A stretch of DNA of 29,871 nt from a virus (taxonomy: Duplodnaviria > Caudoviricetes), in the IMG/VR virus record IMGVR_UViG_3300011339_000048, positions 1 through 29,871 of that record, one strand, 5' to 3'. How positions within the stretch are numbered: position 1 is the first letter of the stretch; the number at the start of each line of letters is the position of its first letter. Made by a program: the position numbers and the translations under genes. Below are positions 1,743-27,138 of the stretch, piece by piece. Under the pieces are notes generated by a model, which saw only the letters and a program-made list of their open reading frames with translations, had not been told where the DNA came from and did no database searches.

Positions 1743-4472
1743 CTATTGGTTATACATAAAGTATGGTTCTGTAACTTCTTCTTCAACAGGTCTTTGTGTC
1801 ATAGAAGAACGTGCGCCTAAATAGCCAGACCTCAAAACGCCTTGACCAATTGCGTTGGCAAAGTCTCCCACATCGCCTGGTCGCAGTAAACCCTTTATGT
1901 CTACATCTTTTCCACTTTTGCTAATTAGCCTTGTGGAAGCGTTCTCTATCGCAGTTAAACCATCTTTATCCAAAAACAGTTTCCTTTGGGCTTCTTTTGT
2001 TGCATTATCAATGTTTGCTTGACCAATCAATGAAAGTATCCTGAAACCTTTGTTAAATACACTAGATATTTGATTAACAGCAATTCCAGTAATTTGTTGT
2101 GGGCGAACTCCACCCGTCATGCGCTCTAATGCTGAAGTTTCTTTAATAGCAACATCTTTGATATTTAATCTATTTATATCAATCTTTTTAGACAACTGAG
2201 CCACATCTGCCAAAGCAGTTAATCTATCAACATGGTCTTTGCCAAAAACCTTAATAAACGCTTCTTTGTTTGCATTTAGATAATCAAATGGCTGTGGTGT
2301 ATCAAGCATTTTGGTAACCATACCTTCTTTTAAGGCCATGTTTACATTTGCTTGGTCTTGAGAAGGTAATTTTTTTAGGTCTACGCTTAATTTGTTGAAA
2401 TAACCTTTGCCACCAGAGCCTAGCAAGTTATTTACAACTCCTTCAATTCCCCTATTGTCATAGTCATTTAAGAAACTTTGACCAAGCCTTGCTTTTGCTG
2501 ACTTTGCCGCATCATCAATTGCAACCTTTTCTCCTGCCAAATAACTTGCTCTTACTCTTGCATCTTGTAGGTTTGCTTTTAATGATGGAACTTCATCAAG
2601 AATGTCGCTAAATCCACCATTGTTGCTATTCTTTGTAATTAATTTGTCTAGTTTTACAGGATCAACTAAACCATTTTTATCTAATGCCGAGTTAAATAAC
2701 TTTGACATGATTGCTTTTTCCACCATTGGAACGCCCTCATCTCCAGCAATACGCAAAAACTGTTTTGTCGCTGTTGGTGAAGATGCTATCAATGGAGAAA
2801 TGCGCTCTGCATACTCTTGTGAACCTATCTTTTGAACAGCAGTTGCATCTTTAAAAGGAATTCCAATCTTGTTGTAGTAATCCGTATCTAGTTGCGTCAT
2901 TGCTTGACCAAAAGTCATGTTCTCGCCACGCAAGTTAACATTGACATTACCATTTGCTGTTTGCACTTGATTTAAAGCATCATCAACTCTGTCTTGCAAT
3001 ATGCGTAACTTATCCTTAGTTACATCAGACTTGACATTACGTATATCCTCCGCAACTCTGCGTTTCAGCGAGTCTAGGCTTGTCATGTCCATGCCTAAAG
3101 ACAAATCGCTAGTTGTAGTGGCTGGTAAGTTATCACCAGCACCAGATGGTTGCATACGAGAACGCAAAGCACTAAATTTATCTGACTGTGTTTTTACCAA
3201 GCGCAATAGGTCTGACTGTCTTCCCCAAGGGTCTGACTGAAACAAATCTTCCGCAGTTGCCAATAAACGTGCTGTTTCGTTGGCAGGAAGGATCGCTCCT
3301 TGCTTTGATGCTTGCCCAATGACGCTATCGTATTCTGGCGATATTGCTTGCCTAGTGGCTTTTTCTCTTGCAATGGCAAGATTTTGCATAGCCATACCTT
3401 GTTGCAAAGGAGTTGATGTGCCAGACAAGTCTAAATCAGATGTAAGTTTAGATAATTGCTTATCAATGAACTTAACTCTCTCGTTTAAATCGGTTTCAAC
3501 TTCGGCTATTTTTTTTGTTGCTGATGGCAACTCGCCCGTTGGTGATGGATAAAGTTCTGCTCTTTTTTTAGCAACAGCAGATTGAATATCAGAATATAGA
3601 GACTTAAGGTCTGCGGCAAAACCAATATCATTTTCAGCAAGAGACTTCAACCTTGTAGACAAAACAATGTTGTCAAGCCCTGCTACGCCCAATACACTTT
3701 TTTCACCCGTAACAAACTGAAGGCGTTTTTGTACTTCGTCAAGTCTGTTTTTTAAGGAAGGATCAGCCTTAAACGCCTCTCCTAATAAGTCTTGCGCCCG
3801 TGATAAGCCCTCAACTTGTGCCAAATCTTCAACATTAAAATCTTTTAAACGATCTTTGGCTTTTCCAAATAACCCCTCTGCGGCTTTGCCAACGCCAACA
3901 CCACTACCTAACGCAAAAGTAATTCCACCAATAACTTGTCCTAATGGGCCAGCAACCTGTTCTCCTACTGTTCCACCTAGTTCTCCAGCCATTCCAGGAA
4001 TTGTTGCCAATCCCATCCGCAATCCTGTTGCTCCTGCTTTAAGAGGGCCACCAAATATTGTGGTTGGGTCAAATGCCGCCTCTATCCCTTTACCAATATA
4101 CTTTTGAGCCGTAGAAGCAGGGGGCATAGCCGTATCAACACCAAGACGCTGTTGTATGTTCTCTGTTGTTAATCCCAACATTTCTGGTTGTGTAGGAAAT
4201 GCCCCAGCAAATGTTCCAGTTTGTTGTGCGCCACCAGCAGTCAAAGATGATGGAAAACCTGTAAGACCTCTTTTTGCACTTTCTACTGCAAACTCCATAA
4301 AAGATGGTGGTCTTTGTTCTGTTTCGCCCATAAGCATAGTTGCCGCAGGGCCACCACTTTCAGCGGCAAATTGTTTTTGCAAATACGCTATTGCATCATT
4401 TTCAGAAGCACCTTCAGGAGCATCTACTTCATACTGCGATCCATCTGGTGCTGTAACAATAAATTTAGCCAC
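1743..4472 (-). CDS. Large internal virion (DNA ejection) protein, putative
   Basis: 909 aa, helical character, Gly/hydrophobic stretch near the N-terminus, last of three large genes after the tail nozzle as in podoviruses. Function inferred from synteny. Confidence 0.65.
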   Translation of the reverse strand: MAKFIVTAPDGSQYEVDAPEGASENDAIAYLQKQFAAESGGPAATMLMGETEQRPPSFMEFAVESAKRGLTGFPSSLTAGGAQQTGTFAGAFPTQPEMLGLTTENIQQRLGVDTAMPPASTAQKYIGKGIEAAFDPTTIFGGPLKAGATGLRMGLATIPGMAGELGGTVGEQVAGPLGQVIGGITFALGSGVGVGKAAEGLFGKAKDRLKDFNVEDLAQVEGLSRAQDLLGEAFKADPSLKNRLDEVQKRLQFVTGEKSVLGVAGLDNIVLSTRLKSLAENDIGFAADLKSLYSDIQSAVAKKRAELYPSPTGELPSATKKIAEVETDLNERVKFIDKQLSKLTSDLDLSGTSTPLQQGMAMQNLAIAREKATRQAISPEYDSVIGQASKQGAILPANETARLLATAEDLFQSDPWGRQSDLLRLVKTQSDKFSALRSRMQPSGAGDNLPATTTSDLSLGMDMTSLDSLKRRVAEDIRNVKSDVTKDKLRILQDRVDDALNQVQTANGNVNVNLRGENMTFGQAMTQLDTDYYNKIGIPFKDATAVQKIGSQEYAERISPLIASSPTATKQFLRIAGDEGVPMVEKAIMSKLFNSALDKNGLVDPVKLDKLITKNSNNGGFSDILDEVPSLKANLQDARVRASYLAGEKVAIDDAAKSAKARLGQSFLNDYDNRGIEGVVNNLLGSGGKGYFNKLSVDLKKLPSQDQANVNMALKEGMVTKMLDTPQPFDYLNANKEAFIKVFGKDHVDRLTALADVAQLSKKIDINRLNIKDVAIKETSALERMTGGVRPQQITGIAVNQISSVFNKGFRILSLIGQANIDNATKEAQRKLFLDKDGLTAIENASTRLISKSGKDVDIKGLLRPGDVGDFANAIGQGVLRSGYLGARSSMTQRPVEEEVTEPYFMYNQ

Positions 4473-4483
4473 AATATCACCCC

Positions 4484-5701
4484 TTAGTTAATTCTTCTTG
4501 CTGAAAACCCAGTTTGCCCAGATGGTTTTTCTACACTAACAGATGGTTTTTCAGCCCCAGTTTTGGATGGTGGTGTAAATTCTTTAAACTTACCCAACTG
4601 TTCATCAATAGATTGTATAAATGATTCGTAATTAGGGCTTTTTGTATATCCAAGTTGTTTTGCTTCGTTGATAACAAAATTCTTTTGCTCAATAAGCGCA
4701 CCACGATAGATAGCAGAAACATATTTCTGTGCTTCTTCTTTTTGTTGCCTTGTTCCTCTGCCACTAAAGAATTCAGTTGCAGATTGTGCTAATCGGTCAT
4801 CTAAACCACCAGTTCTAGCAAAACGCTGAATGTCTGCTTTTGATAATGGCCCTGTTTCCCCTGTTAATCTTGCTAAAGTAGCAGGAAGTGCTTTAGCGGC
4901 AATATCATTACCTGTAACTCGATTTATTGTGTCAAATGCACTTGGAGCCTCAGAGATAAGAGCAGATGTTTTCTTCATTGTGGGGTTTGAATCTACAAAC
5001 TTTCTAAATTCCATCCAATCTTTTTGCGCTACTGGTGCGCCAGGTGGATATACTTTTACGCCACTTTTATCAGCAAGCGTTCCTTTTTGTTCTTCAATTA
5101 ATTTGTTAACAATTGCTTTTTGTTCTTGCGTTAATGATGCAAAAGGCATATTAAATTTTTCTTCAGAAAGCGCCTCCCTATCTATACCAAATCGGGCAGA
5201 TTTTTCTGGTTTTTCTACTAATGCCAACCTAGTAATATCTCCAGTTTGCTCATACTCTGCAATACTTTGAGGTGTATATTTACCAGACCTAATAATCTGC
5301 TGAATAGGATCAAGACCTTGACGTTCACGCAAGTTCTTAGTTACTTGAGACAACTTAAACGCCGCTTCTCTAGCCTGATTAGCCACGGCATTTGCTCCTT
5401 GTGGATCAAAAGGTGCTAACTCTTTTGCGGCGGCCATAAGAGAATCTGGATCGTTTGGGTCAGTTTTATTAAATATTGCATTTCTCATGCTTATCAGTTT
5501 TAACATTGGGTCTTCAGCACCCAATGCGCCACCGATACCGCGACCTATTTGGGTAGCACCAGCATAAACATTAGCACGACCAAAAGCATCAGGAGCCAAC
5601 TTCCCCATTTGCACCCCTTGATCCAATATGTTTTCACCAACATTTTGTTGGTACATCTCAGGAGTAATACCAAATAACCCACCTACTATATCTGTTGCCA
5701 T
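4484..5701 (-). CDS. Internal virion (ejection) protein, putative
   Basis: 405 aa, AAGGAG SD upstream, middle gene of the trio. Confidence 0.6.
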   Translation of the reverse strand: MATDIVGGLFGITPEMYQQNVGENILDQGVQMGKLAPDAFGRANVYAGATQIGRGIGGALGAEDPMLKLISMRNAIFNKTDPNDPDSLMAAAKELAPFDPQGANAVANQAREAAFKLSQVTKNLRERQGLDPIQQIIRSGKYTPQSIAEYEQTGDITRLALVEKPEKSARFGIDREALSEEKFNMPFASLTQEQKAIVNKLIEEQKGTLADKSGVKVYPPGAPVAQKDWMEFRKFVDSNPTMKKTSALISEAPSAFDTINRVTGNDIAAKALPATLARLTGETGPLSKADIQRFARTGGLDDRLAQSATEFFSGRGTRQQKEEAQKYVSAIYRGALIEQKNFVINEAKQLGYTKSPNYESFIQSIDEQLGKFKEFTPPSKTGAEKPSVSVEKPSGQTGFSARRIN

Positions 5702-15952: not shown

Positions 15953-17398
15953 TTACTTAGTTTCAAGTGCCACCACACGGGCGGTTAGTGCGTTGATTGT
16001 TTCGGCTTGTGTGTCGTTTATAGCCTTGAGTTCTTTTATGGCGGCGCTTAGAGCAGCAACTAAAAAGGAAGCGTCCATGCTCTGGTACTCAGGATTGCCA
16101 TCTTTATCTACCCCGTCTTTTGTTCCGTGAACCGCTTGCGGAAACACTTCTGCTAACTCATGGGCAATAAAACCTTCACCATCTTTACCATCAATTTTCC
16201 ATGTATAGGTACAAGGCTTTAGTCGTGCAATCTTAGCCAAAGCCCCAGTTATTGGCGTTACGTTTTCTTTAAGGCGGTAGTCAGATGTTGTGTTGTAAAG
16301 AATACTAGAACCGTTTCCCACAATAGAGCCAACGGCCCCATTACCATTTACCCAACTTATATATGAGTTAGTGGTTGCCGCGCCAGTACTAAATATGCTT
16401 GGGCCTGTATTGAAAGTATTCCTAAACAAAATTCCTTGCGCAGAACTTGTTGGGTTATTAAAAATTTGTACTTGGTCTGTAATTGTGGCGTTTCCAAAAA
16501 CATTAAATGTGCTAGTGCCGCCCGTGCCTTTAAGTTGGAGGTTGCCGTTGGCGTCGATACGCATACGCTCAGAGCCGTTGTTATAAAAACGAATGTTTCC
16601 AGCGGGGTTATTCCAAATATCTAAATTACCTGCACCACCAGTAAATCCAATATATCCATAGTTAGTTGATGGAGTTGTTGTAGAACGCACATAAACAGCA
16701 GAGCCACCACTTCCTTGTACATCTAGTGCTTTTCCATACGCACCTGTATCGGTTGGTGTACTAGTACCAATCCCCACATTACCAGAGGAGTCGATACGCA
16801 TACGCTCTGTGCCACCAGTTTGTGCATATAAATATGCACTTGAAGAATTTATTCCATAAGCAGTCCCAGCGCCAAATGTTGCGTTATCACCAATTTGTGA
16901 AGAAGTATTTGTTGCTCCATTATTTACAATATATGTGGAGTTATAAGTTGACCCAAATCTTGCGGTACTAGAAACATCTAATTTTTGTGCTGGCGAACTA
17001 GTACCAATCCCCACATTCTGTGAAGTATCAATAGTTACCGCAGTAGTGCCAGCAGACTGAATCGTAAGATTAGTAGCAGATGCGCTTGAGAACTGATTGA
17101 TAGTGGGTGTAGTTAGTGTCTTATTGGTCAGAGTATCTGTGGTTGCTCGACCCACCAAGGTATCTGTTGATGTTGGTAGGGTCAGAGTGCCAGTATTAGA
17201 GATTGTGCTGATTACAGGAGCAGTTAGGGTCTTGTTGGTCAGGGTATCAGTCGTTGCCTTACCAACCAAGGTATCCGTTGCCGCAGGCAGGGTGATGGTA
17301 GTAGTACCAGCCACCGCAGTTGCCTGCAATGTGGTTGTCCCTGAAGTCGAACCAGAAATATCTATTGCATTAGGTTTTAGGGTTACTGTCGTTGCCAT
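15953..17398 (-). CDS. Fibre protein with C-terminal peptidase S74 intramolecular chaperone
   Basis: Thr-rich TDTLTNKTLT repeats, ERMRID..GNVGIGT shaft repeats, autocleavage motif TTSDYRLKENV, GFIAHELAEVFP and a terminal coiled coil. Confidence 0.9.
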   Translation of the reverse strand: MATTVTLKPNAIDISGSTSGTTTLQATAVAGTTTITLPAATDTLVGKATTDTLTNKTLTAPVISTISNTGTLTLPTSTDTLVGRATTDTLTNKTLTTPTINQFSSASATNLTIQSAGTTAVTIDTSQNVGIGTSSPAQKLDVSSTARFGSTYNSTYIVNNGATNTSSQIGDNATFGAGTAYGINSSSAYLYAQTGGTERMRIDSSGNVGIGTSTPTDTGAYGKALDVQGSGGSAVYVRSTTTPSTNYGYIGFTGGAGNLDIWNNPAGNIRFYNNGSERMRIDANGNLQLKGTGGTSTFNVFGNATITDQVQIFNNPTSSAQGILFRNTFNTGPSIFSTGAATTNSYISWVNGNGAVGSIVGNGSSILYNTTSDYRLKENVTPITGALAKIARLKPCTYTWKIDGKDGEGFIAHELAEVFPQAVHGTKDGVDKDGNPEYQSMDASFLVAALSAAIKELKAINDTQAETINALTARVVALETK

Positions 17399-17407
17399 AT
17401 TTTTCCT

Positions 17408-18112
17408 TTATGGTGTTCCATTTGCAACAATATTTGTTGCTGAAGTAATCACTCCAGTTGAAGACATTGATGCAATTGTAATTGCACCATACTTGAATAT
17501 CAACTTGCCACCCGATTCTTCAATTGTGAAGTTTGTCGTTACAAGAGAATTAACAGTTGGCGTTGCCCAAGATGTGTTTGTTCCATCTGTTTTTAAAAAC
17601 TTGCCAGAATTGCTTGCCTGTGAGGGTAGAACAGTACCCGCACCCCCAGAAGTCACAAGTTTGATTCTTTCTTGCAACTCAGGAGCAACTACCTCTCCCA
17701 CATTGATCTGTTGACCAGTAGACAAGGTAATAACCAATGATCCATCAAAGTCAATCTGGGCGTTTGAGACAGAAACACCATCTTTTCCGTCTTGTCCGTC
17801 TTTCCCATCCCGACCATCTCGCCCATTCTTGCCATCTACGCCTTGCCGACCATCTGCACCCTTCTCGCCCTTGTCTCCCTTGTCCCCTTTTTGTGGGACT
17901 ATGGCTTTGGCAACCTCAAGTTGTGCTGTAACCTTGTTTTCCATCACTTTGATAGCCTCAACTATCAAATCTACATTGTCTTGAACAGCCTTTTCCTCTT
18001 GTTGGCGCATAGCCACAAGCGTTTCTTCCATCTTTGTAATGGCTTCTAACTTCTCATCAAAAGATGAGTCTGTTGACTCAATACTTTGGATAAGTTCTTT
18101 GATATTAGCCAT
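17408..18112 (-). CDS. Collagen-like fibre protein
   Basis: N-terminal coiled coil, 13 consecutive Gly-X-Y triplets (GDK...GVS), SGKFLKTDGTNTSW linker, beta C-terminus. Confidence 0.8.
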   Translation of the reverse strand: MANIKELIQSIESTDSSFDEKLEAITKMEETLVAMRQQEEKAVQDNVDLIVEAIKVMENKVTAQLEVAKAIVPQKGDKGDKGEKGADGRQGVDGKNGRDGRDGKDGQDGKDGVSVSNAQIDFDGSLVITLSTGQQINVGEVVAPELQERIKLVTSGGAGTVLPSQASNSGKFLKTDGTNTSWATPTVNSLVTTNFTIEESGGKLIFKYGAITIASMSSTGVITSATNIVANGTP

Positions 18113-20171
18113 TTCTTAGACCATCTGTGAGTTTGGTAAGGAAATCTTCTTTGACTTTTGACTGAGCATTTAACTTGTCTGCCATCTGTAACTCAACAAT
18201 CTTGCTCTTATTCTTAATATCAGCCTCTTTAAGCATCAAATCAGCAATCTTGACTCGTTTGTCAAACTCTCTCTGGTTGGCATCAGCCTCATTTGGCAGA
18301 TTCTTAGTCAAAGATGCACTCATCTTGGCTTGCACCTCTTGTGGCATGAGTTGCGCCTCAGTCATTAACTTCTGAGCCTCTGCACGATTCTGTTCTGCCT
18401 GAGTAGTATTGACCGCAATTTGGGCTTGAGCCGCTTGGAGTGCCAATTGTTGTTGCACTTGTTGCATTTGTTGCGCTTGTGGGTCAGGTTGAGCCATCTT
18501 CTCAAGCATTGCAATCAACTCCATCCTGTTGGACAAACTTGAATTAGCCAAAATGCCCTTCAGAATCACAGGCAAGACAGGAGTGTTGGGGCCTAGCGTC
18601 TGAAGTAGCCCAATAAACTGCTGTTGTTCGTACTCTCTAGCAATAATGCCAAGGGTTGCGGTTGGTATGAAGTTCATATCCACGCTTGGATAGCGTTCTG
18701 GGTCAAACTGCATATAGCGAAATGCCGCCTTCTTGATAAACGGGATCAAGAAATCCTCTTGGAAGTTCACCAAAGTGCGTTTGTACTTCTTGATGATAGA
18801 GGCAACAGCCATAGACATACCGCCTTGACCACCATCTCTAGCCACATTGCTGATCATGCCTTGGGAATCAAGAGTTCCCGTTGCTTGGAGGAGCATCCTC
18901 TCAAAGTCTTTGGCAGTAGCCAAGTTGTTGGGGTCAGTTTGACCAAACTTGAAGGGATACAAAATCTCAGAAGGTGCGCCATTGGTCAAGATCGCCTTGC
19001 CAGGCTTGACCTCAAACTTCATTCCCCTTGGAAGTCTGGTCGCATCCATTGCAATCATCGGGGAAGTTGTCAGCGCCAAGGAATCTAGGTGGCTTCTAGT
19101 CTGTGCGTCAATAGCCTTTTGCATATTGAACGCCTTTTCGACTGTGCCTCTACCCAACAATCTGTTTGGAACTGTGTCATCTTGGTAACTTAAAACAGGT
19201 CTGTCCTTCATCATGTAAGGATTGGCTTCTGCTTTCAAGAGTTGGTCATCGTTGGCAATCACCACAATGGCTTCTACCAAGTCTGCATACTCTTCTGCCT
19301 CAGAGTTATCTGGAAACAGGTCAACAATTTCCTTGTTTTCCTCTAGATTCTCAAGAAACTCCCTTGGCACTAAGCCATAGTAGGTCAACAACAAGACTTT
19401 CTCGTCCTGATATTGGCTTACCTCTTGGGTAGGCTCAAGGTCTGTGTCTTCACCAGAAGTGGTAATGTCTACTTTGCGATAGATGCCCTTCTCTATGCCT
19501 TGGACAATCTTGTGGATAGAGACATATTTCTCGATAGCCACGCCCATACAGTCATCAATGCTCGTTCCATTGGGATCGAATAAGAAGTTCTTGGGGTTGA
19601 CAGGCATGATCTTCACGCCAATGCGGTCTTTTTCTAAGACTCCGATGGCGGCTTGCCCAACTTGGCCTGGTATCGCTTGCGTGGCAGGGACGTATTCCTT
19701 CTCCGTCTTGACAATAATCTCGCCAATGCCTGTGCCGTAGATTTCAGCCATCAACTCGATTTGGTCGATGGACTTGCGGATTTTGTCCTTCTTGAAGTCT
19801 TCCATCAGTTGAGCCTTGATTAACTCAACATCTATGGGGTTACCGCCTACATCTTGTAGGTTGTCTTCAATATCAAAGTAGTCGCCTTGACCAAAGATTG
19901 CTTCCATGATCTCTGCATGGCGAGTCTCTACGGCTTGTTGGGTGGCGGGGGTGACAATACGGCTACGCTCAGATTCACGGGTTTTGTCCTCGGAAGCCCA
20001 TTGACCACGGAAGATGCGCTCGTACTCTAGCCAATCAGGAAGGAAGTTAACATCTCGGTAGTCACGCCACCGATTGCAGTGGTCTACAACAAATCCAACA
20101 AGTTCTTTGTCAGCCTCACTAGGCTCGTCAAACTCGTTTTCTTCCATACCGACTTGTTTATCTGTTGCCAT
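18105..20171 (-). CDS. Portal protein
   Basis: About 688 aa from ATG 20171, directly after terL; RSRIVTPATQQAVE, AEIYGTGIG, NFLFDPNG motifs; Gln-rich C-terminal helix like the P22 portal barrel. Confidence 0.9.
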   Translation of the reverse strand: MATDKQVGMEENEFDEPSEADKELVGFVVDHCNRWRDYRDVNFLPDWLEYERIFRGQWASEDKTRESERSRIVTPATQQAVETRHAEIMEAIFGQGDYFDIEDNLQDVGGNPIDVELIKAQLMEDFKKDKIRKSIDQIELMAEIYGTGIGEIIVKTEKEYVPATQAIPGQVGQAAIGVLEKDRIGVKIMPVNPKNFLFDPNGTSIDDCMGVAIEKYVSIHKIVQGIEKGIYRKVDITTSGEDTDLEPTQEVSQYQDEKVLLLTYYGLVPREFLENLEENKEIVDLFPDNSEAEEYADLVEAIVVIANDDQLLKAEANPYMMKDRPVLSYQDDTVPNRLLGRGTVEKAFNMQKAIDAQTRSHLDSLALTTSPMIAMDATRLPRGMKFEVKPGKAILTNGAPSEILYPFKFGQTDPNNLATAKDFERMLLQATGTLDSQGMISNVARDGGQGGMSMAVASIIKKYKRTLVNFQEDFLIPFIKKAAFRYMQFDPERYPSVDMNFIPTATLGIIAREYEQQQFIGLLQTLGPNTPVLPVILKGILANSSLSNRMELIAMLEKMAQPDPQAQQMQQVQQQLALQAAQAQIAVNTTQAEQNRAEAQKLMTEAQLMPQEVQAKMSASLTKNLPNEADANQREFDKRVKIADLMLKEADIKNKSKIVELQMADKLNAQSKVKEDFLTKLTDGLRNG

Positions 20172-20173
20172 TA

Positions 20174-21433
20174 TCAAACCCCGCTTATTATGTCTACTGG
20201 CTCCCAATCATCTTCTTGATCGTCCACAAAGTAAGAAGTGACAGCCATTTGATCTATATATGAGAGAGCATCTGGCAAATCATCATGCACTCCAATGGCG
20301 GGAAATAAAAGAAGTTGATCTTTAAATTCATCCCAATCCTCCTCAGAGTTCAGCACAATACGTCCATGCTCAAACCGCCCTTGGAGACTCCAGATAATTC
20401 TGTCAGCCTTTTTCCTGTTGCCATGCGTTAAGTCAACTATGTGCGAATATACATTATTTTTACGCATTAAGTCAGACAAATATGGCAAAACTGCGTTTTT
20501 TAGCGCACCTTTCTCAATTCCTACACTCAAAGGCTTGTATTCACGCATCTTCAATAGGATCGTTGCCGCAGTCTCACGGATGTCCCAACGCCCATAGACA
20601 ATCTCTTTGACAAACCATTTGCCATCATCCGTTACCTTGACAACAGCAATAGCAGTCTGGTCTAGCCTTTTCTTAGAATTAGCCGCTTGTTTGGCAACTT
20701 CCTCGAATCCTGCCAAGTCACAGGCTATGTAGTAACTGCCATACTCAGGCTCTTCCCCGTACTTGATCCACTCTTCCTTAAAGATATTGCTACCAGCATT
20801 GGTGAAACTAGCCATATATTCTTGCTTGAAAGCAAAGGTAGACAGGGTTTTCTTGGCTGACTCAATCTCTGAGGGGTCGATCAGGGGGTTGTCTTTGGTG
20901 GTGAAGTGCCAAGATTTCCAGTCTTTATCCTCTGCGCTTTCGCCCAATCTAAACAGATCGTAGAACCAGTTTCTTCCTTTGGGCGTTCCGATGAACATGG
21001 CTCTTCCTTTTTTATCGGAGAGAGAGGCTCGGATAACTTGCTCCCACGCTTCGGGCTTGATGTCTGCGACTTCGTCAAGGACTGCGTAGGTGAGGGAGAC
21101 TCCACGGAGGGTATCGGGTCTATCAGCACCTCGGACATAGATGGTTGCTCCGTTGATGGTGGTAATGTCTTGATTGTTGATGTGGGCATTTTGGATAACT
21201 TCCCTTCCTAATTCCATTAAAACTTGCCAAATAATCTGCCTAGCCTGACCATTGGTAGGGGCTACATACAGAACAGCAGAACCCGCAGGGCAACGCAATG
21301 CCTCAATAAGTAGGGTGACTGCCGCCATACGGGACTTACCACAACGCCTACCAGCCGCAATGACTTTGAACCTCGTCTGATCCTTAAAAACAGTCTCTTG
21401 CCAAGGTAAAAGGCTAAAGTTCAGATCACTCAT
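20174..21433 (-). CDS. terL: Terminase large subunit
   Basis: Walker A AAGRRCGKS, Walker B AVLDE, GTP coupling motif, nuclease motifs IACDLAG and HDDLPDALSY. Confidence 0.95.
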   Translation of the reverse strand: MSDLNFSLLPWQETVFKDQTRFKVIAAGRRCGKSRMAAVTLLIEALRCPAGSAVLYVAPTNGQARQIIWQVLMELGREVIQNAHINNQDITTINGATIYVRGADRPDTLRGVSLTYAVLDEVADIKPEAWEQVIRASLSDKKGRAMFIGTPKGRNWFYDLFRLGESAEDKDWKSWHFTTKDNPLIDPSEIESAKKTLSTFAFKQEYMASFTNAGSNIFKEEWIKYGEEPEYGSYYIACDLAGFEEVAKQAANSKKRLDQTAIAVVKVTDDGKWFVKEIVYGRWDIRETAATILLKMREYKPLSVGIEKGALKNAVLPYLSDLMRKNNVYSHIVDLTHGNRKKADRIIWSLQGRFEHGRIVLNSEEDWDEFKDQLLLFPAIGVHDDLPDALSYIDQMAVTSYFVDDQEDDWEPVDIISGV

Positions 21434-21834
21434 TATTTCTTCATCATTTGCATGATTTGTTCTTGGAGTTTCTGAGCCTCAAGGGTTTGGTCTAGGGTCG
21501 CATCTTTGGCAGAAGGGTCTCCTGAGAGAATCCTAGCCAAGATAGACTGTTTGGCAGAAATTGGGTCTTTTTCATACTCAGTACCAGTAAACATCTTTTG
21601 CTGTGACTTTGTTAAGTCAAAACTTGGGCTTATTTCATTTTGGCGCATATAGATACGCAAAGCCTCGTTTTTTGCCACAGCCATCTTCTCTTGAGGTGAA
21701 AGCGTAGAAAAAGGATTTAATATGATTTTGTTGTCTTCAGTCGCCATACCAGCAACTTCAGGTCTTTCCTTAAAGAAAGTAAGTTCTGATTTATAGGGAG
21801 TTCTCATCCCATAAAGGTTTACAAGGTTATCCAT
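21433..21834 (-). CDS. Hypothetical protein between terS and terL
   Basis: About 133 aa from ATG 21834 with GGAGG SD; TAATG-coupled to terL. Confidence 0.7.
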   Translation of the reverse strand: MDNLVNLYGMRTPYKSELTFFKERPEVAGMATEDNKIILNPFSTLSPQEKMAVAKNEALRIYMRQNEISPSFDLTKSQQKMFTGTEYEKDPISAKQSILARILSGDPSAKDATLDQTLEAQKLQEQIMQMMKK

Positions 21835-22201
21835 TCTTATCCTCCACATCTTCTGCGTCTATTGTAGGAGCGTGGCTTATTTCGCCAATTCCCGTAATAT
21901 TGATGGTGACAGCCGACCTTTGCTTGGCTTCCTTGTCAAATAAGGTGATCGGTAGCGTCCGATCCAAACACATTTTGAGTGCCGCCATCTGGCCTGGGTG
22001 GTCATCATTCAACGCAATCTCTATCACCTTCTGCGCCACATCCCTTCCACCAGAGTTGATCATCAACTCCTTCAACTCCTTGATCCTCTGGTGATCCGTC
22101 TTCGGTAACGAGAGAGATGGGTTCGCCGCCCATCGCTGGATGGTGAGTTTCTTAACACCCTTCGGTCTACCAACCTTTTTTTTCAATTCAAGTTCACTCA
22201 T
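21827..22201 (-). CDS. terS: Terminase small subunit, putative
   Basis: 124 aa; basic KKKVGRPKGVKK N-terminus, helical core VIEIALNDDHPGQMAALKMCLDR, C-terminal strand VTINITG; first gene of the packaging module. Confidence 0.7.
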   Translation of the reverse strand: MSELELKKKVGRPKGVKKLTIQRWAANPSLSLPKTDHQRIKELKELMINSGGRDVAQKVIEIALNDDHPGQMAALKMCLDRTLPITLFDKEAKQRSAVTINITGIGEISHAPTIDAEDVEDKNG

Positions 22202-22233
22202 AACAAAATTTTACTCCTTTTACCTTTTCGTGT

Positions 22234-22281
22234 GGGGAGGGGGGTACAGCAAAAACTTTGGTGGCGACCGACCCCCTCCCC
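22234..22281. repeat. 10-bp G/C inverted repeat containing GGGNAGGG octamers
   Basis: GGGGAGGGGG at 22234-22243 and CCCCCTCCCC at 22272-22281. Confidence 0.75.
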
Positions 22282-22332
22282 CCCATGCGAAAACCAAAGA
22301 CTACTGGAAAACCCTAACAGTTTTGCGAGTCT

Positions 22333-22360
22333 GCTTCATACAACATTCATTATGTAAAGT
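22333..22360 (+). other. dif-like XerC/XerD recombination site
   Basis: GCTTCATACAA-CATTCA-TTATGTAAAGT, 11-6-11. Right arm 9/11 to the E. coli XerD arm TTATGTTAAAT; left arm 6/11 to the XerC arm GGTGCGCATAA. Confidence 0.75.
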
Positions 22361-22369
22361 TATTTGGTA

Positions 22370-22457
22370 GTTATCCACAGGTTATCCACAGGCTTTTGTA
22401 AGTTAACGCAAAGAAATCAAGAAATTGTGGATAACTCATCATTTGCCCTGTGGATAA
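22370..22457. promoter_or_regulatory. Cluster of four perfect DnaA boxes
   Basis: TTATCCACA at 22371-22379 and 22382-22390; TGTGGATAA at 22426-22434 and 22449-22457. Confidence 0.9.
22415..22427 (+). promoter_or_regulatory. IHF-binding consensus
   Basis: AATCAA-GAAA-TTG fits WATCAANNNNTTR; lies between DnaA boxes 2 and 3. Confidence 0.6.
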
Positions 22458-22584
22458 GTTGGGTTTGGGCGGTCTGGTTCGGCGGCGCAAACGCAAAAAG
22501 TGAAAGAGTCGGATGGTGCATTTTGGCTATACCTTAGGTTTTGACTATCGACTTTAACAAACCAATAGTTATTGCAAATATTCG

Positions 22585-22866
22585 TTAAGAAGTATCGAGA
22601 TCAGATAGTTTGCACATATGCCTCTTATTCCTCTTAAAACGGGCTACAAGCCTCTGATCTGACTCATCCGTAGCCAGACTAACCTCAAGGGATTGGACGG
22701 GCATCCAAGGTCTATAACCGAATTCGTAGAAATGTCGGTAAAACTCCATTACGGCGACAAAACCATTGGAGATGTTTCCGTCACCAGCCGCCAAAAGGAT
22801 TGTCCGTTCCGCATCACCAAGAACCCTGCGGAACTGGACAGTATGTTTGCTTGGTGGACGAGGCAT
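22585..22866 (-). CDS. Hypothetical protein, possibly DNA-binding
   Basis: 93 aa starting 1 nt after the rusA stop, GGAGG SD; basic MPRPPSK N-terminus. Confidence 0.6.
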   Translation of the reverse strand: MPRPPSKHTVQFRRVLGDAERTILLAAGDGNISNGFVAVMEFYRHFYEFGYRPWMPVQSLEVSLATDESDQRLVARFKRNKRHMCKLSDLDTS

Positions 22867-22867
22867 C

Positions 22868-23203
22868 CTAGATCACCTCCAACTCAACCGCATACACCTT
22901 GGCACCACCGCTTCTCTGCCGATACTGCCAATCAAGCCGCTTATCGCCATCATCAACGCCAAGCCAGTCGGCGACACCATCACGGGTTGCTTTGAACGCA
23001 GACTGCAAGTTATCGCCATCCAACTGGCGAGGCGCAATCCTCGTTAGCACCAAAGTCAAAGGTAATGGCGGCGGAACAGCCACAGATGCCAATGCGTTAA
23101 ACGCCTTTTGCCGCTGACTTTTCGCCAAACGAGCCTTAACAGCCCAATGCATCCGCAAATTAGCAACAGAGACAATTTTCATATCAATCCTCACTTCGAT
23201 CAT
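22868..23203 (-). CDS. rusA: RusA-like Holliday junction resolvase
   Basis: RQLDGDNLQSAFKATRDGVADWLGVDDGD matches the RusA DxDN...K...D...DD signature. Confidence 0.8.
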   Translation of the reverse strand: MIEVRIDMKIVSVANLRMHWAVKARLAKSQRQKAFNALASVAVPPPLPLTLVLTRIAPRQLDGDNLQSAFKATRDGVADWLGVDDGDKRLDWQYRQRSGGAKVYAVELEVI

Positions 23204-23517
23204 GCGTAGGCTTCTTCGATGGCTTTGCAGACCGCTTTGAACAAGTCTGGGCGAAACTCCTTAATGATTGGCAAGTCAAGGTTATCGGCAAACCTAGTGC
23301 CATTCCAAGCAAACCAATAATTCGCTTTTAGTGCCACCATGCCATCAGCCACCAGTTTGTAGTTATTCCAATATTCCTTAACTGGCTGGTTCTCAAACAG
23401 CATCCAGTTAACGCCATCAAACTCACCAAGGTCACAAACCTTTACCCAAGTCTTCTGATCTGGTTTATTTCCAGCCCACAATTTTTCTTTCATACCTTGC
23501 CTTTCAAATTTATCCAA
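23200..23517 (-). CDS. Hypothetical protein
   Basis: 105 aa, TTG start with GGGAG SD (alternative ATG 23493); ATGA overlap with rusA. Confidence 0.65.
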   Translation of the reverse strand: MDKFERQGMKEKLWAGNKPDQKTWVKVCDLGEFDGVNWMLFENQPVKEYWNNYKLVADGMVALKANYWFAWNGTRFADNLDLPIIKEFRPDLFKAVCKAIEEAYA

Positions 23518-23542
23518 CCTGACTCCCTTGTCCGTCCTACCT

Positions 23543-23727
23543 CATCCGATCTGCCTTCCATCCGATCCTTCCGTTGTCTGTAGACAACGGAGGAAGGATT
23601 CGGATGATTGGAGAGGCAGAAGGCGGATGGTTTCGGATGGTTTCGGATGATTCGGATGGTAGTTTCGGATGATCTAATTACCATCCGATGTTATCCGATT
23701 CGGATGACTTTCGGATGGTTTCGGATG
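23543..23727. repeat. Iteron array plus hairpin, probable phage replication origin
   Basis: Eight TTCGGATG copies (23599, 23632, 23642, 23651, 23664, 23699, 23710, 23720), inverted CATCCGA at 23543, 23559 and 23682, and palindrome TCCGTTGTCT-GT-AGACAACGGA at 23570-23591; overlaps the 3' end of the primase-helicase gene. Confidence 0.8.
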
Positions 23728-25728
23728 ACTTTTATACCCACCATCGACCTCCAAAATCATCTCTTTGGCGATCATGCTCTTGACTACTTCCCAAAATCTG
23801 TTGTTCTTAACTCCATGCTCCTTGGCGCAGTCTCGCCACTCGTCATATCCAACTGGTCTGAGTTGGTGATTTTGTAGCAAATTGACCTCTAGCATCACCA
23901 AGCATTCCATCACTTGCTTTTGGTTTGGTGAGAGGTAGGTCTTCTTTTGGACTTGGCTAACCAATCCCGAAATGTCTACCGCTGTCAGGTACGCACCCTT
24001 GACTGGCATCCCGTTCTTGTTGTTGATTGGTAGATCGACTTGGGTGATCTGGAAGTTCTTAGGACTTGGCATTTCCGCATCCTTCATCTTCTTGGACTCA
24101 AACGCTATGGTTTTGGTGCCTGAATCCAACTGGCACTTGTACTCAGCATCCAATGCGCCTTTCAAGGCTGTCGAGCCTCTGGAGCGATCCTTGTCTGCCA
24201 CTCCGCTATGGTGAACCACCATGACACAGCATTTCCAAGGTTGGCGCAGATACACATCTAGATGTTGGATAAACGCATTCATGTCTTGGGTGCTATTTTC
24301 GTCACCACCATGATTTCTGGCTAATGTATCAATCACAATCATGGATGGGATGCAGTTCGCTTCCGCTGACAACTGCTTAATCGACTCAGCCACAACTGCC
24401 GCCTCAGTAGCGTCATACAACTGAGCCGCACGATGGGACTTGTACAGCGGGACACCAGCTAGGCTGGTGCCGTTACCAATCTGCCATGCCTTTAGCCTTC
24501 TGGCTAATCCGTTATGCCCTTCACCAGCGATGTAGAACACGCTTCCCTGTTTGACATCATGCCCATGCCAAGGTTTGCCAGTTGCAACGCAACAAGCCAG
24601 ATCGATGGCCACAAAACTCTTGCCACCGCCTGGGTCTCCAAACACCTGCGCCAGACTGTCTGCCTCGATGTAGTCATCGACCACCCATTTGATCTCTGTC
24701 AACTCCAAACTATCTGCTCTGGTGAACTCAAACGCCAACTTATCTATGGCTGGCAACGCCACACGCTCGATCTGCTCTTTGACCGCCTCAATCCCTTGGA
24801 GAGTGTGCAAGTCATTGAAATCCGTTGGCTTAGATGCCAGATCAGACTCATTGAAGATTGGATACACAATTTCCCCAAACACCAAACCAGCCGCCGCCTT
24901 TGCCTTGGTGAGGCCAGGATTGCCCTCCGTGAACTGATCATTATCCGCACAGATAACTATGCGAGACCCTAAGAACATCTCCTTAGCAGACTTGGCTACC
25001 TTGGCGAGATTGCCACAGTCAAACGCCACCAAAGTTGTGAACCCTGTCGCTTGGTGAATGGATGCACAAGTTGCGAAACCCTCACCTATAAAGATCACTT
25101 TGCGGTTACCCCTGAGTTCATAAAACCCACCCTCGATCTTGCCGCCTTTTAGAAATCTTTTGTTGCCCTCTGCATCAATGGTTTGGTAGGACAGAATTTC
25201 CCCTGACACATCACTCACAGGCACCACCAAACGCCCTGCACGATCAATCTTGATCCCATGAGGCTCAATCCTCTTCCTCACCAAATACGGATGGTCTGCA
25301 CTCGCATCAGCATAGGTGCTGACCTCATCCTCTGCCTTTTCAGCCGCCACCTGTTGACTGGCAATCCTGTCAGCCTCTCGCTTAGACCTGATTTCTGCGA
25401 TTAACTTGTCATGCTCTAGTCGCTCAGAAAACGACATATTGCGCCCAATATCTGCCATCCACTTGGACTCAAAGGTTGGCTCCTTCCAACAGCCACAAAC
25501 ACCAACAGGAATCTTGCCACTTAAGTGCAAGATATACCACCCATCAACTGCACCCTTCTTGGAAGAGATGTGAGGCACTCGATGTATCTCGCCATCTGCG
25601 ATCAAGTCTCTGATCACCAGCCCTTGCGCCTCACAATGCTTGGTGAACGCCGTCACAGGATCAATCAGGTCTTGGCTCTCAGTTGCCGCGGCAAAGCCGT
25701 TGGGAAATATGTTTGTAAGGCTAGTCAT
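23674..25728 (-). CDS. Toprim primase fused to RepA-like (AAA_25) helicase
   Basis: Toprim IGEGFAT...VAFDCGNL...ICADND...TDFNDL; Walker A GDPGGGKS, YIAGEG, Walker B IVIDT, VVHHSG, RGSTALKGALD. Confidence 0.92.
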   Translation of the reverse strand: MTSLTNIFPNGFAAATESQDLIDPVTAFTKHCEAQGLVIRDLIADGEIHRVPHISSKKGAVDGWYILHLSGKIPVGVCGCWKEPTFESKWMADIGRNMSFSERLEHDKLIAEIRSKREADRIASQQVAAEKAEDEVSTYADASADHPYLVRKRIEPHGIKIDRAGRLVVPVSDVSGEILSYQTIDAEGNKRFLKGGKIEGGFYELRGNRKVIFIGEGFATCASIHQATGFTTLVAFDCGNLAKVAKSAKEMFLGSRIVICADNDQFTEGNPGLTKAKAAAGLVFGEIVYPIFNESDLASKPTDFNDLHTLQGIEAVKEQIERVALPAIDKLAFEFTRADSLELTEIKWVVDDYIEADSLAQVFGDPGGGKSFVAIDLACCVATGKPWHGHDVKQGSVFYIAGEGHNGLARRLKAWQIGNGTSLAGVPLYKSHRAAQLYDATEAAVVAESIKQLSAEANCIPSMIVIDTLARNHGGDENSTQDMNAFIQHLDVYLRQPWKCCVMVVHHSGVADKDRSRGSTALKGALDAEYKCQLDSGTKTIAFESKKMKDAEMPSPKNFQITQVDLPINNKNGMPVKGAYLTAVDISGLVSQVQKKTYLSPNQKQVMECLVMLEVNLLQNHQLRPVGYDEWRDCAKEHGVKNNRFWEVVKSMIAKEMILEVDGGYKSHPKPSESHPNRITSDGN

Positions 25729-25946
25729 GTTTGCACCTCCACCAACTCAGGCCAAATAGCCTGCCAAGACCCCTGACAGAGCATCTTTCTGGTGATCTTG
25801 CCACCTGATTCATGCTCGACCCAGACAGCTTGCCAAGCACTCATTTCTCGCCTTCCTGTCAGGCATTGATAAATATATTGTTCTGAGAGTCCAACTCTTT
25901 TAGCCAACTCTCTGCGCTCTTCGGGGGGAATGTGTGGAATGTTCAT
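25725..25946 (-). CDS. Cro-like HTH regulator
   Basis: 73 aa; RRELAKRVGLSEQYIYQCLTGRR HTH and C-terminal IWPEL; first gene of the leftward operon. Confidence 0.85.
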   Translation of the reverse strand: MNIPHIPPEERRELAKRVGLSEQYIYQCLTGRREMSAWQAVWVEHESGGKITRKMLCQGSWQAIWPELVEVQT

Positions 25947-25955
25947 AGGATGGCG

Positions 25956-26063
25956 AGTCTAGCATATTGCTATAACTGTGGATTTTTAGCGTAAACCCTA
26001 TTAGGGTTTTCATATTAAATATTTCTAGCAATTTGTTAGAAACCTCTAGTTTTTTGCTAGAAT
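25956..26063. promoter_or_regulatory. Divergent promoters with three operator-like palindromes
   Basis: Leftward extended -10 TGC-TAGACT (25964-25956); rightward TGC-TAGAAT (26055-26063); 15-bp CTAGCA-N3-TGCTAG-like sites at 25959, 26025 and 26046. Confidence 0.7.
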
Positions 26064-26127
26064 TCTGGTCATGGGCAGGGAAATAGGTTCTTTGCACATC
26101 ACGCCGAGAGGCCACAAAGGAAACAAA

Positions 26128-26502
26128 ATGAACGCAACTTACACAGCATTTGTAGGATATGACTTTTACGAAGCAGGCAAGTCTTGTGACGGCCACCCAT
26201 ATATCGCTTCAAAATTTTACGTAATGGTTGAGAACGAGGCTGGCCGCCGTTTTCGTCACACAGCATCATTTCCTAGCGTCCAAGTAAAAGAATGGGAAGG
26301 CGAAAACATTTTTGTCAATATTGGCGAAGAGTCAAAAGACATTGCGGATGGCTTGGCTAAAAAGGTCAACGCCGCCCTGCAAGCGGGTAAGCAGTTGGAT
26401 CAAAATTATTGGTTTGAGATTGATCCAGCGTATGGCTCAGATGAGTACATTGCTCAGGATACAGAGGCTCATCGTCTTTTTGCAGAGAAGCAAGAAGGTT
26501 AA
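26128..26502 (+). CDS. Hypothetical early protein
   Basis: ATG 26128 after AAGGA SD; 124 aa. Confidence 0.75.
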   Translation: MNATYTAFVGYDFYEAGKSCDGHPYIASKFYVMVENEAGRRFRHTASFPSVQVKEWEGENIFVNIGEESKDIADGLAKKVNAALQAGKQLDQNYWFEIDPAYGSDEYIAQDTEAHRLFAEKQEG

Positions 26503-26508
26503 CCCCAC

Positions 26509-26540
26509 GGGGCGCAAGCCCCATCCCTTTTAACCTTTTT
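26509..26540 (+). terminator. GNRA-loop hairpin, possible weak terminator
   Basis: GGGGC-GCAA-GCCCC followed after a short gap by T runs. Confidence 0.45.
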
Positions 26541-26552
26541 AGGACAATTGAA

Positions 26553-26807
26553 ATGACACATTCAACATCAAACGGAACAGTAGTAAGGCGCAAGGGCAAT
26601 ACAGGCTCCAGACCCAACGCTCGCAAAGAGTGGATCGTGATCCGCATGGACAATTATGTTGGCGCACTAAAAATGTGGAAGCCAACTTTGCCAATGACTA
26701 TCAAGCAAGCCGCTGACGCATTCAATCACTTTAGCCGTTGGGACGATGTGGCAGTAAAGATGATTACTGTTAAAGAGTGGGAAAAGATGAACGAGGTGAC
26801 AGCGTGA
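26553..26807 (+). CDS. Hypothetical protein
   Basis: 84 aa, AGGA SD. Confidence 0.7.
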   Translation: MTHSTSNGTVVRRKGNTGSRPNARKEWIVIRMDNYVGALKMWKPTLPMTIKQAADAFNHFSRWDDVAVKMITVKEWEKMNEVTA

Positions 26808-26890
26808 AACAAACCCTTAAAGACATCCTCGCCGCCACACTGGTGGCAGTAGGCTTTGCTTGGCTCCTAGTGGCATGGTGGTCAGCATGA
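26804..26890 (+). CDS. 28-aa single-TM peptide
   Basis: Not in the ORF track. GTGA and ATGA overlaps at both ends, GAGG SD; MKQTLKDILAATLVAVGFAWLLVAWWSA. Confidence 0.7.
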   Translation: MKQTLKDILAATLVAVGFAWLLVAWWSA

Positions 26891-27138
26891 CCCACATCAC
26901 CAGGCTCCAAGAGTTCTGCGCCGAGCCACGCACAATGAAAGAAATTACAGCTGAAGGTTTCACACCCAACGCTGTCTACATGGCCGTTCGCCGAGGCCAA
27001 CTGGTCAACCACAATGCCAAAGATGCTTGGGGCAGACCTCTACACAAAACAGCTGGTCTTTTCCAATCTGCTGTGCAAGTCAACCCTGTCTATGATGCCC
27101 AACCTTTGGTTTCCGCATGGATGGGAGCATCAGCATGA
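26887..27138 (+). CDS. Hypothetical protein, possible winged HTH
   Basis: ATG 26887; EPRTMKEITAEGFTPNAVYMAVRRGQL. Confidence 0.65.
   Translation: MTHITRLQEFCAEPRTMKEITAEGFTPNAVYMAVRRGQLVNHNAKDAWGRPLHKTAGLFQSAVQVNPVYDAQPLVSAWMGASA

Follow-up and report, generated by a model that had tools for sequence, protein, structure and literature searches.

Sequence comparison identified a short non-coding cassette, made up of DnaA boxes and an adjoining AT-rich core (22346-22457, ~110 bp), as a small portable module common to three otherwise unrelated freshwater phage groups. By the same comparison the DnaA boxes are real and selected, and the gap module that they form is a likely candidate binding site for the host DnaA protein. 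We infer, tentatively and with a probability of roughly 0.3, that the cassette would be a DnaA-driven unwinding site acting as an auxiliary origin. If host DnaA is recruited, three unrelated and abundant freshwater phage groups use one movable non-coding plug-in to the host initiator, and this would be a rare exchange between phages of a cis element and not of a gene.

The window, the whole stretch of DNA that was analysed (29871 bases), is a linear IMG/VR virus record with a CheckV completeness of 85%. The minus strand carries every window gene from 25946 down to 1, in the order cro-like gene, primase-helicase, orf105, orf111, orf93, gap, orf124, orf138, terL, portal and structural genes. The primase-helicase (23674..25728, minus strand) had Toprim_3 and AAA_25 domain matches, and orf93 (22585..22866, minus strand), the last gene ahead of the gap, was without a family match. 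The gap itself is 383 bp long (22202-22584) and is followed by orf124 (21827..22201, minus strand) and, further down, by terL (20174-21433, minus strand). The sequence-only reading had placed its element directly before terS; the gap is indeed upstream of orf124, but orf124 can be called small-terminase-like by position only. orf124 has a GRPKG AT-hook-like N-terminus, gave no match in Pfam or PHROG, and in the ESM Atlas fell into hypothetical viral clusters only, in one of which 36% of the members have an AT_hook. The divergent arm that starts at 26071 encodes Sak4-like, SSB-like and Cas4-type exonuclease proteins, and the portion of the genome absent from the window encodes a spanin, an endolysin and a helicase. 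Rfam and ARAGORN searches over the window found nothing.

The four perfect DnaA boxes claimed for the gap were all present and were the sole perfect copies of TTATCCACA in the 29871-base window, where ~0.23 perfect 9-mers were expected by chance on both strands as compared to the 4 found. The core-proximal box is at 22371..22379 (plus strand, offset -15; the coding, minus, strand reads TGTGGATAA) and the second at 22382..22390 (plus strand, offset -26). The other two boxes are on the coding strand, at 22426..22434 (minus strand, offset -70) and 22449..22457 (minus strand, offset -93). Together the four boxes span 87 bp and form two opposed pairs, of which the one closest to the core is a tandem 'double box' with 2 bp between its boxes. 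E. coli DnaA needs tandem pairs of this spacing in vivo (PMC11317965).

The AT-rich core is a 19-mer, AATAACTTTACATAATGAA, at 22346..22364 on the minus strand, and it overlaps the site that had been read as 'dif-like'. An IMG/VR scan detected the exact 19-mer in 88 viral contigs. All 88 had at least one TTATNCACA box at offset -93, -70, -40, -26 or -15, at least two such boxes at these fixed offsets were found in 86 of the 88 loci, and the flanks of all loci together held just 2 additional TTATNCACA boxes. The box at offset -15 was the most constant and was present in 85/88 of the loci holding the 19-mer. A perfect box at offset -26 was found only in the window and in loci L089 and L123, with the other group A members showing a one-mismatch copy there when read by eye. 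The commonest layouts were -70/-40/-15 (30 loci), -40/-15 (26 loci) and -93/-70/-15 (19 loci), and the four-box form of the window recurred in L123 and nearly so in L089. Every variant with at least two boxes (86/88 loci) had boxes in both directions.

Column conservation was computed outside the 19-mer, since the 19-mer was the selection criterion. The share of the majority letter was higher in box columns than in other columns in all three groups (0.98 versus 0.77 in group A, 0.98 versus 0.87 in group B and 0.96 versus 0.83 in group C). Among the 30-mers within +-400 nt, the core ranked as the least stable in 5 of the 6 sequences tested and as the second least stable in the sixth; low stability by itself does not show unwinding at the core. 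In the relatives with the 19-mer the boxes and their spacing were kept, but the XerC-arm half of the dif-like site and the IHF match were not. What stands of the earlier claim of a purely cis-acting module that recruits host proteins is the set of conserved DnaA consensus sites, between which the spacers vary, and not its dif, KOPS and IHF parts. Within the core, low-affinity DnaA sites in 11-bp phase could be read by eye with matches of only 7/9 and 5/9.

The 88 loci fell into three groups by their flanking proteins, group A with 25, group B with 54 and group C with 9 loci. Group A is the family of the window and has the order orf93, cassette, G-run and terS-like gene. The order in group B is a 707-aa primase/helicase, orf236, a PHROG-1482 small terminase, the cassette, a C-rich tract and terL; here the cassette begins at the terS stop codon and terL is only ~25% identical to that of the window. 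Group C begins with a primase-helicase that shares 89% identity with that of the window in its C-terminal part, followed by a small ORF, a PHROG-1482 small terminase, the cassette and a G-run. In this group (9/88 loci) the cassette comes 25 nt behind terS and has an inverted orientation with respect to all genes that flank it. Across the groups the cassette was invariably located no more than ~150 nt from a small-terminase(-like) gene, upstream of terS in group A. Sampling of group B through terL detected 1-3 boxes in 67 of the 71 loci with enough upstream DNA, and in these loci the boxes stayed at the terS end with the distance to terL ranging from 276 to 1065 nt. When group A was sampled through terL, the cassette was found in 15 of the best 80 loci. 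A diverged lineage, A2 (L051, L077, L080, L081, L082 and L084), with a helicase that is 36% identical, had 2-6 perfect boxes and a related core. The contigs of one run branched at 22346 and at 22383 into group-B-like sequence, which indicates that groups A and B co-occur in that run and have the core in common; the DNA contigs compared with the window otherwise showed strain variation only. In each complete carrier genome the cassette held all, or all but 1-2, of the DnaA boxes. Searched against isolate phages, the region 17000-27000 (megablast) and the gap (blastn) gave no match, protein searches detected distant relatives only, and MW202879, with a terL 69% identical to that of group B, was without a DnaA box.

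The phages that carry the cassette also carry an iteron array. In the window this array consists of 11 copies of CATCCGA on both strands with a central palindrome (23543..23727, minus strand). It extends over the end of the primase-helicase gene into the DNA that follows and is likely the cognate origin. The same kind of layout behind the primase-helicase, with other iterons, was observed in groups B and C and in lineage A2 (GGACAAATGG in group B and GGGGACAAA in lineage A2). The nearest isolates, Idiomarinaceae phage 1N2-2 and Alteromonas phage PB15, had the same iteron layout and no DnaA-box cluster. Cassette and iterons are separated by 1.1-1.3 kb that contain orf105, orf111 and orf93. An AAA_25 primase-helicase was encoded in 6/6 carrier genomes and in 0/4 complete box-less sister genomes; all four of these sisters encode DnaD-like 'replication initiation/primosomal' proteins, and box-less sister genomes hold other repeats in the cassette slot. 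The co-occurrence of cassette and primase-helicase, ~1.2 kb apart, may be mere linkage. For annotation, the lesson is that clustered DnaA boxes do not always mark the origin of a phage; here the likely cognate iteron origin is 1.1 kb away. A composite origin of iterons and DnaA boxes of the P1 oriR type was considered and rejected, as the iterons (23543-23727) and the boxes (22371-22457) do not adjoin. In P1 oriR, pSC101 and RK2 oriV, boxes and iterons are adjacent parts of a single origin, a few hundred bp in size. The phages described here resemble these systems in being mobile replicons with their own initiator sites, host DnaA boxes and an AT-rich region.

As an auxiliary origin the cassette would operate like a miniature oriC. 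Host DnaA would assemble on the two opposed box pairs and open the adjacent AT-rich core, the least stable DNA of the region, and the opened core would provide a host-initiator-driven start of DNA synthesis beside the iteron origin of the primase-helicase. DnaA binding, melting, and priming or helicase loading at the cassette are all steps that we infer. The consensus boxes, the tandem pair with its 2-bp gap, the opposed arrays and the unstable core suggest this reading. A plain promoter is disfavoured by the use of the cassette in both orientations. The oriC/BUS modules (PMC8287927) likewise combine consensus boxes, a tandem pair and opposed arrays with adjacent least stable DNA; unlike them the cassette is without dnaA or dnaN context, and its replicon has a separate iteron-type origin. 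DnaA boxes were also marked in a predicted origin of a Pseudomonas phage (PMC11512268). The BUS rule is at least three NAN trios starting 0-16 nt from a box (PMC8287927). By eye no run of three NAN trios was seen within 16 nt of a box in the window, a weak result as the strand rule was itself inferred, and the sole run of three, also read by eye, started 24 nt from the box at 22382-22390. The constant neighbourhood of terS, for which an origin has no need, speaks against an auxiliary origin, and so does the distance of 1.1-1.3 kb to the iterons, unlike the plasmid origins with their adjoining boxes and iterons. A DnaA origin is in addition not needed, since the carrier lineages have an iteron origin and 1N2-2 and PB15 have the same layout without the box cluster. 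The related P4 alpha system replicates without DnaA. Relative to the unwinding element, the core-nearest box here is oriented opposite to R1 of the E. coli oriC.

In all three groups the cassette lies at the junction between the replication/recombination genes and the packaging genes, a position that would also suit a gate between early and late expression. DnaA on the opposed boxes would block read-through from the early operon (cro to primase-helicase) and cover a promoter-like site; we regard this as possible but doubtful, and hold the same of its proposed timing, in which multiplication of the phage genome would titrate DnaA away and the packaging genes would switch on. The promoter-like site is a sigma-70-like match, TGGATA-17-CATAAT, at 22349..22377 on the minus strand (9/12) with its first hexamer (-35) inside the proximal box, and the overlap with this box was seen in groups A and B. 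However, a match of just 9/12 is low and is partly a consequence of the box sequence, the promoter-like site of group C fails the scan and would fire antisense into terS, and lineage A2, read by eye, keeps the core without a usable -35. The genes from 25946 to 1 are on one strand with no terminator-like site found in the gap, and boxes in both directions in 86/88 loci suit a block that acts either way round, but in groups B and C such a gate would split terS from terL. RNA contigs from four metatranscriptome runs covered the late genes and almost nothing beyond 22262; these contigs lack starts and strand, and the late genes covered are common to many relatives. The DnaA-regulated promoters and roadblocks of E. 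coli share boxes 2-3 bp apart, a -35-like overlap and a long transcription unit with the cassette (PMC11317965). Unlike those promoters, the cassette has four boxes in two opposed pairs, it also occurs inverted (group C), and its promoter is putative. A broader form of this reading, which we consider decidedly unlikely, is a cis-only copy-number clock traded among phages, in which DnaA on the opposed boxes would hold the packaging genes shut until it is titrated. The other protein-binding arrays in the slot of the sister phages would then do the same job, a suggestion to which we give the same low standing.

The constant neighbourhood of the small terminase suggests a possible role at the genome end or in packaging. 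The cassette could lie in or beside a terminal repeat or packaging site, a reading by analogy that we think rather unlikely, and no more probable is its extension that bound DnaA would serve terminase assembly, end handling or DNA entry, as proposed for T5. A small-terminase(-like) gene was always within ~150 nt of the cassette, and the group B boxes (67/71 loci) were fixed at the terS end despite the varying distance to terL. In all three small-terminase types the N-terminus is AT-hook-like (GRP) and could be in contact with the AT-rich core. The annotation of Sinorhizobium phage phiM5 (terL 55% identical to that of group B) gives direct terminal repeats of 357 bp, which contain a C-run and stop 36 nt short of terL. 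The carrier assemblies G005, G006 and G008 were circular with word-length overlaps, and their 'terminal repeats' of 99 or 127 nt are assembler word lengths. Pile-ups of contig ends, maybe from homopolymer breaks, followed the C-run in group B and fell within the G-run in group A; the ends near these G/C-runs were ragged and not at one base, and look like assembly breaks. Against a role in packaging, box-bearing and box-less phages of group A have terS-like proteins that are homologous over their full length, with no co-variation with the upstream sites. The small terminase was also considered as the reader of the upstream sites and was rejected, the group A proteins being homologous throughout, boxes or not. 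A function of DnaA in packaging or entry is not known to have been demonstrated, and for T5 it is a proposed model.

T5-like phages are the closest known comparison, and they have eight paired DnaA boxes in the terminal repeat, with the pairs in inverted repeats, which favours a genome-end role (bioRxiv 10.1101/866236, Davison). The earlier statement that tailed phages have no described equivalent was therefore too strong. The cassette and the T5 injection-stop (iss) region are both non-coding tailed-phage DNA with close TTATCCACA pairs inverted around a spacer, and both keep their architecture across phages with diverged genes and have a function that is proposed but unproven. T5 has its 8 boxes, paired at a spacing of 3 bp, within a terminal repeat of 10 kb and remote from the terminase genes, whereas the cassette has 2-4 boxes (up to 6 in one lineage), a 2-bp gap, a place beside terS and a conserved AT-rich core. 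A search for literature on DnaA boxes beside terminase genes found none, with most subscription journals outside the search. If DnaA does bind here, the cassette would be a second, independent example besides T5 of DnaA boxes near the packaging side of a tailed phage, and the comparison with T5 would make the role of DnaA for such phages testable.

A sink for host DnaA is improbable in our view. Double boxes of high affinity, present on hundreds of replicating phage genomes, would titrate host DnaA or, datA-like, inactivate it, and it is equally improbable that new rounds of host chromosome replication would stop as a consequence. The boxes are of perfect consensus and double-box form, they occur in either cassette orientation and in three phage groups, and the carriers' own helicase-primase and iteron origin should make DnaA unnecessary for the phage, all of which is compatible with a sink. 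There are only 2-4 boxes per genome, however, and a sink leaves the strictly conserved core, the fixed box-to-core spacing and the constant terS neighbourhood unexplained. The E. coli datA and DARS loci resemble the cassette as non-origin clusters of DnaA boxes, and in the window an IHF-type match lies between the boxes. Unlike datA/DARS the cassette is phage-borne, and its IHF match, which a datA-like site would share, is not conserved in the relatives.

The sequence-only reading had combined the DnaA boxes with a dif site, an IHF site and KOPS octamers. The best register of the dif-like site, 22333-22360 on the plus strand, matched the E. coli dif 28-mer at 17/28, which is chance level; the dif of the host may differ from that of E. 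coli. A score of 17 or 18 was obtained at six other places in the window, and a score of at least 17 in 50/50 shuffles. The half of this register that resembles the XerD arm lies in conserved sequence, and the XerC-arm half varies between and within groups. Integration at host dif was not borne out, as phage genes of group A, B or C flank the site and phage-host junctions were found at 0/88 loci, each checked on whichever side its contig reaches. The IHF consensus WATCAANNNNTTR does match 22415-22427 (plus strand), yet at chance level and with poor conservation. There were 2 matches in the window as compared to 1.86 expected, at least 2 were found in 51/100 shuffles, and the match, which lies between the two box pairs, was kept only in the closest subtype (window, L044 and L045). 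The GGGNAGGG letters of the KOPS-like octamers are present, but a polar FtsK signal is not supported. The gap has one copy on each strand, and these two copies form the arms of an inverted repeat with a perfect 10-bp match (22234-22243 and 22272-22281). The 4 copies in the window compare to 2.5 expected, with at least 4 in 28/100 shuffles. With its dif, KOPS and IHF parts unsupported, the picture of opposite chromosome poles brought together in one cassette falls.

An episomal or integrated lifestyle fared no better, and nothing was found that supports a lysogenic state. A genome-contig scan with terL returned 5 short MAG contigs and neither a host nor an integrated prophage, a tyrosine integrase was found in 0/5 complete carrier genomes, and no partition genes were seen in the annotated parts. 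A composite mimic of oriC and dif, in which XerCD, FtsK/KOPS and IHF would serve to resolve dimers, integrate the phage at dif or maintain it as an episome, is almost certainly wrong. In its favour, 9/11 positions in one part of the core agree by eye with the XerD arm of E. coli dif, and an integrase-free route is compatible with the integrase count of 0/5. Against it, the dif and IHF matches are both at chance level and the XerC-arm half of the dif-like site is unconserved, the octamers are arms of an inverted repeat whose G-run occurs with or without DnaA boxes, and neither a phage-host junction (0/88) nor, in the genome-contig scan, a prophage was found.

The arms of the inverted repeat are a G-run, GGGGGGGAGGGGG, at 22272..22284 on the minus (coding) strand, which contains one of the 'KOPS' octamers, and a C-rich partner arm at 22234..22244 (minus strand; the plus strand reads GGGGAGGGGGG), which contains the other; the two are 100% complementary over 10 nt. 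A single G-run of the form G6-9 A G4-6 precedes the terS-like gene of the window and of 52 of the 80 terL-related loci, always on the coding strand and never on the other, and most of the remaining terL-related loci without it end short upstream. Compared across these loci, the G-run is a family-wide element and not a polar chromosome signal. It was present irrespective of DnaA boxes, and in box-less relatives the 200 nt before it hold ~TTAGTTAGTGCTTAC repeats, palindromes or GC-rich repeats. A Fur-box reading of the sister-phage palindromes was rejected, as just 1 of 10 matches of at least 14/19 was in the slot, with no enrichment. The hairpin fold of the window had a z of -1.49, unremarkable for its composition, and in many family members the G-run can pair with the C-rich arm.

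Directly behind the primase-helicase gene the window carries an iteron origin (23543-23727, minus strand). An iteron origin was likewise located directly behind the primase-helicase gene in L178, a locus from carrier group B (3690-3850), in L051, a diverged lineage of the window's own family (3975-4110), and in the viral loci L179 (6500-6740), L187 (22007-22270) and L189 (9983-10230). All of these origins share a layout in which direct repeats lead into a central palindrome that is followed by inverted copies. The iteron words themselves were lineage-specific (CATCCGAA, GGACAAATGG, GGGGACAAA, GGTACA and GGTTCA). As the word differs by lineage, these data suggest that it co-varies with the C-terminal domain of the primase-helicase. 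The origin iteron word CCATCCGA also occurs once within ATGCACCATCCGA (window 22506-22520), a sequence situated at the upstream edge of the cassette of DnaA boxes and AT-rich core. An inverted form, ATGGTGCAT, was kept by relatives that lack the DnaA boxes, about 200 nt before the G-run described below.

The G-run (G6-9 A G4-6) is a family-wide, single-copy element that precedes the terS-like gene on the coding strand. It was found at window 22272-22284 and at the equivalent place in 52 of the 80 terL-related loci of the family (L005-L084), and most family members have a conserved stretch, about TGTAATATTTGTGGGAGCCTCC, after it. Contig breaks were frequent within the G-run. Those sister phages among L005-L084 that lack DnaA boxes have lineage-specific arrays in the 200 nt preceding the G-run. 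Some arrays consist of 2-5 repeats close to TTAGTTAGTGCTTAC and others of palindromes, for example AAATGAGAATGATTCTCATTT, while L052-L054 have GC-rich repeats of the CTGGCCGC type. Reading the palindromes in these sisters as Fur boxes was rejected, as matches were not above background.

All three kinds of small terminase or terminase-like protein encoded beside the cassette (window 21827-22201; L178:4616-5047; L179:7164-7730) carry an AT-hook-like GRP motif close to the N-terminus, and AT_hook was present in 36% of the members of an Atlas cluster related to orf124, the terS-like gene of the window. In relatives without the boxes (the family loci L030, L034, L038 and L063), 0.5-1.4 kb of structured-looking non-coding DNA separates the G-run from the terS-like gene. 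Within this DNA in L030, Rfam gave a 108-nt tRNA match that contains an insertion (5311-5418, 44 bits); ARAGORN called no tRNA at this match. On the other side of the gene, orf138 (window 21433-21849) separates it from terL, while in many relatives the two genes adjoin without orf138. One RNA-run contig links 21433 to 21849, with 14 other letters in between.

In group B a C-rich, low-complexity tract lies between the cassette and terL (L178:5230-5340 and the equivalent tract in the other loci). Its length varies among loci, and contigs end and start raggedly inside it. In the Sinorhizobium phage phiM5, the annotated terminal repeat ends in a similar C-run.
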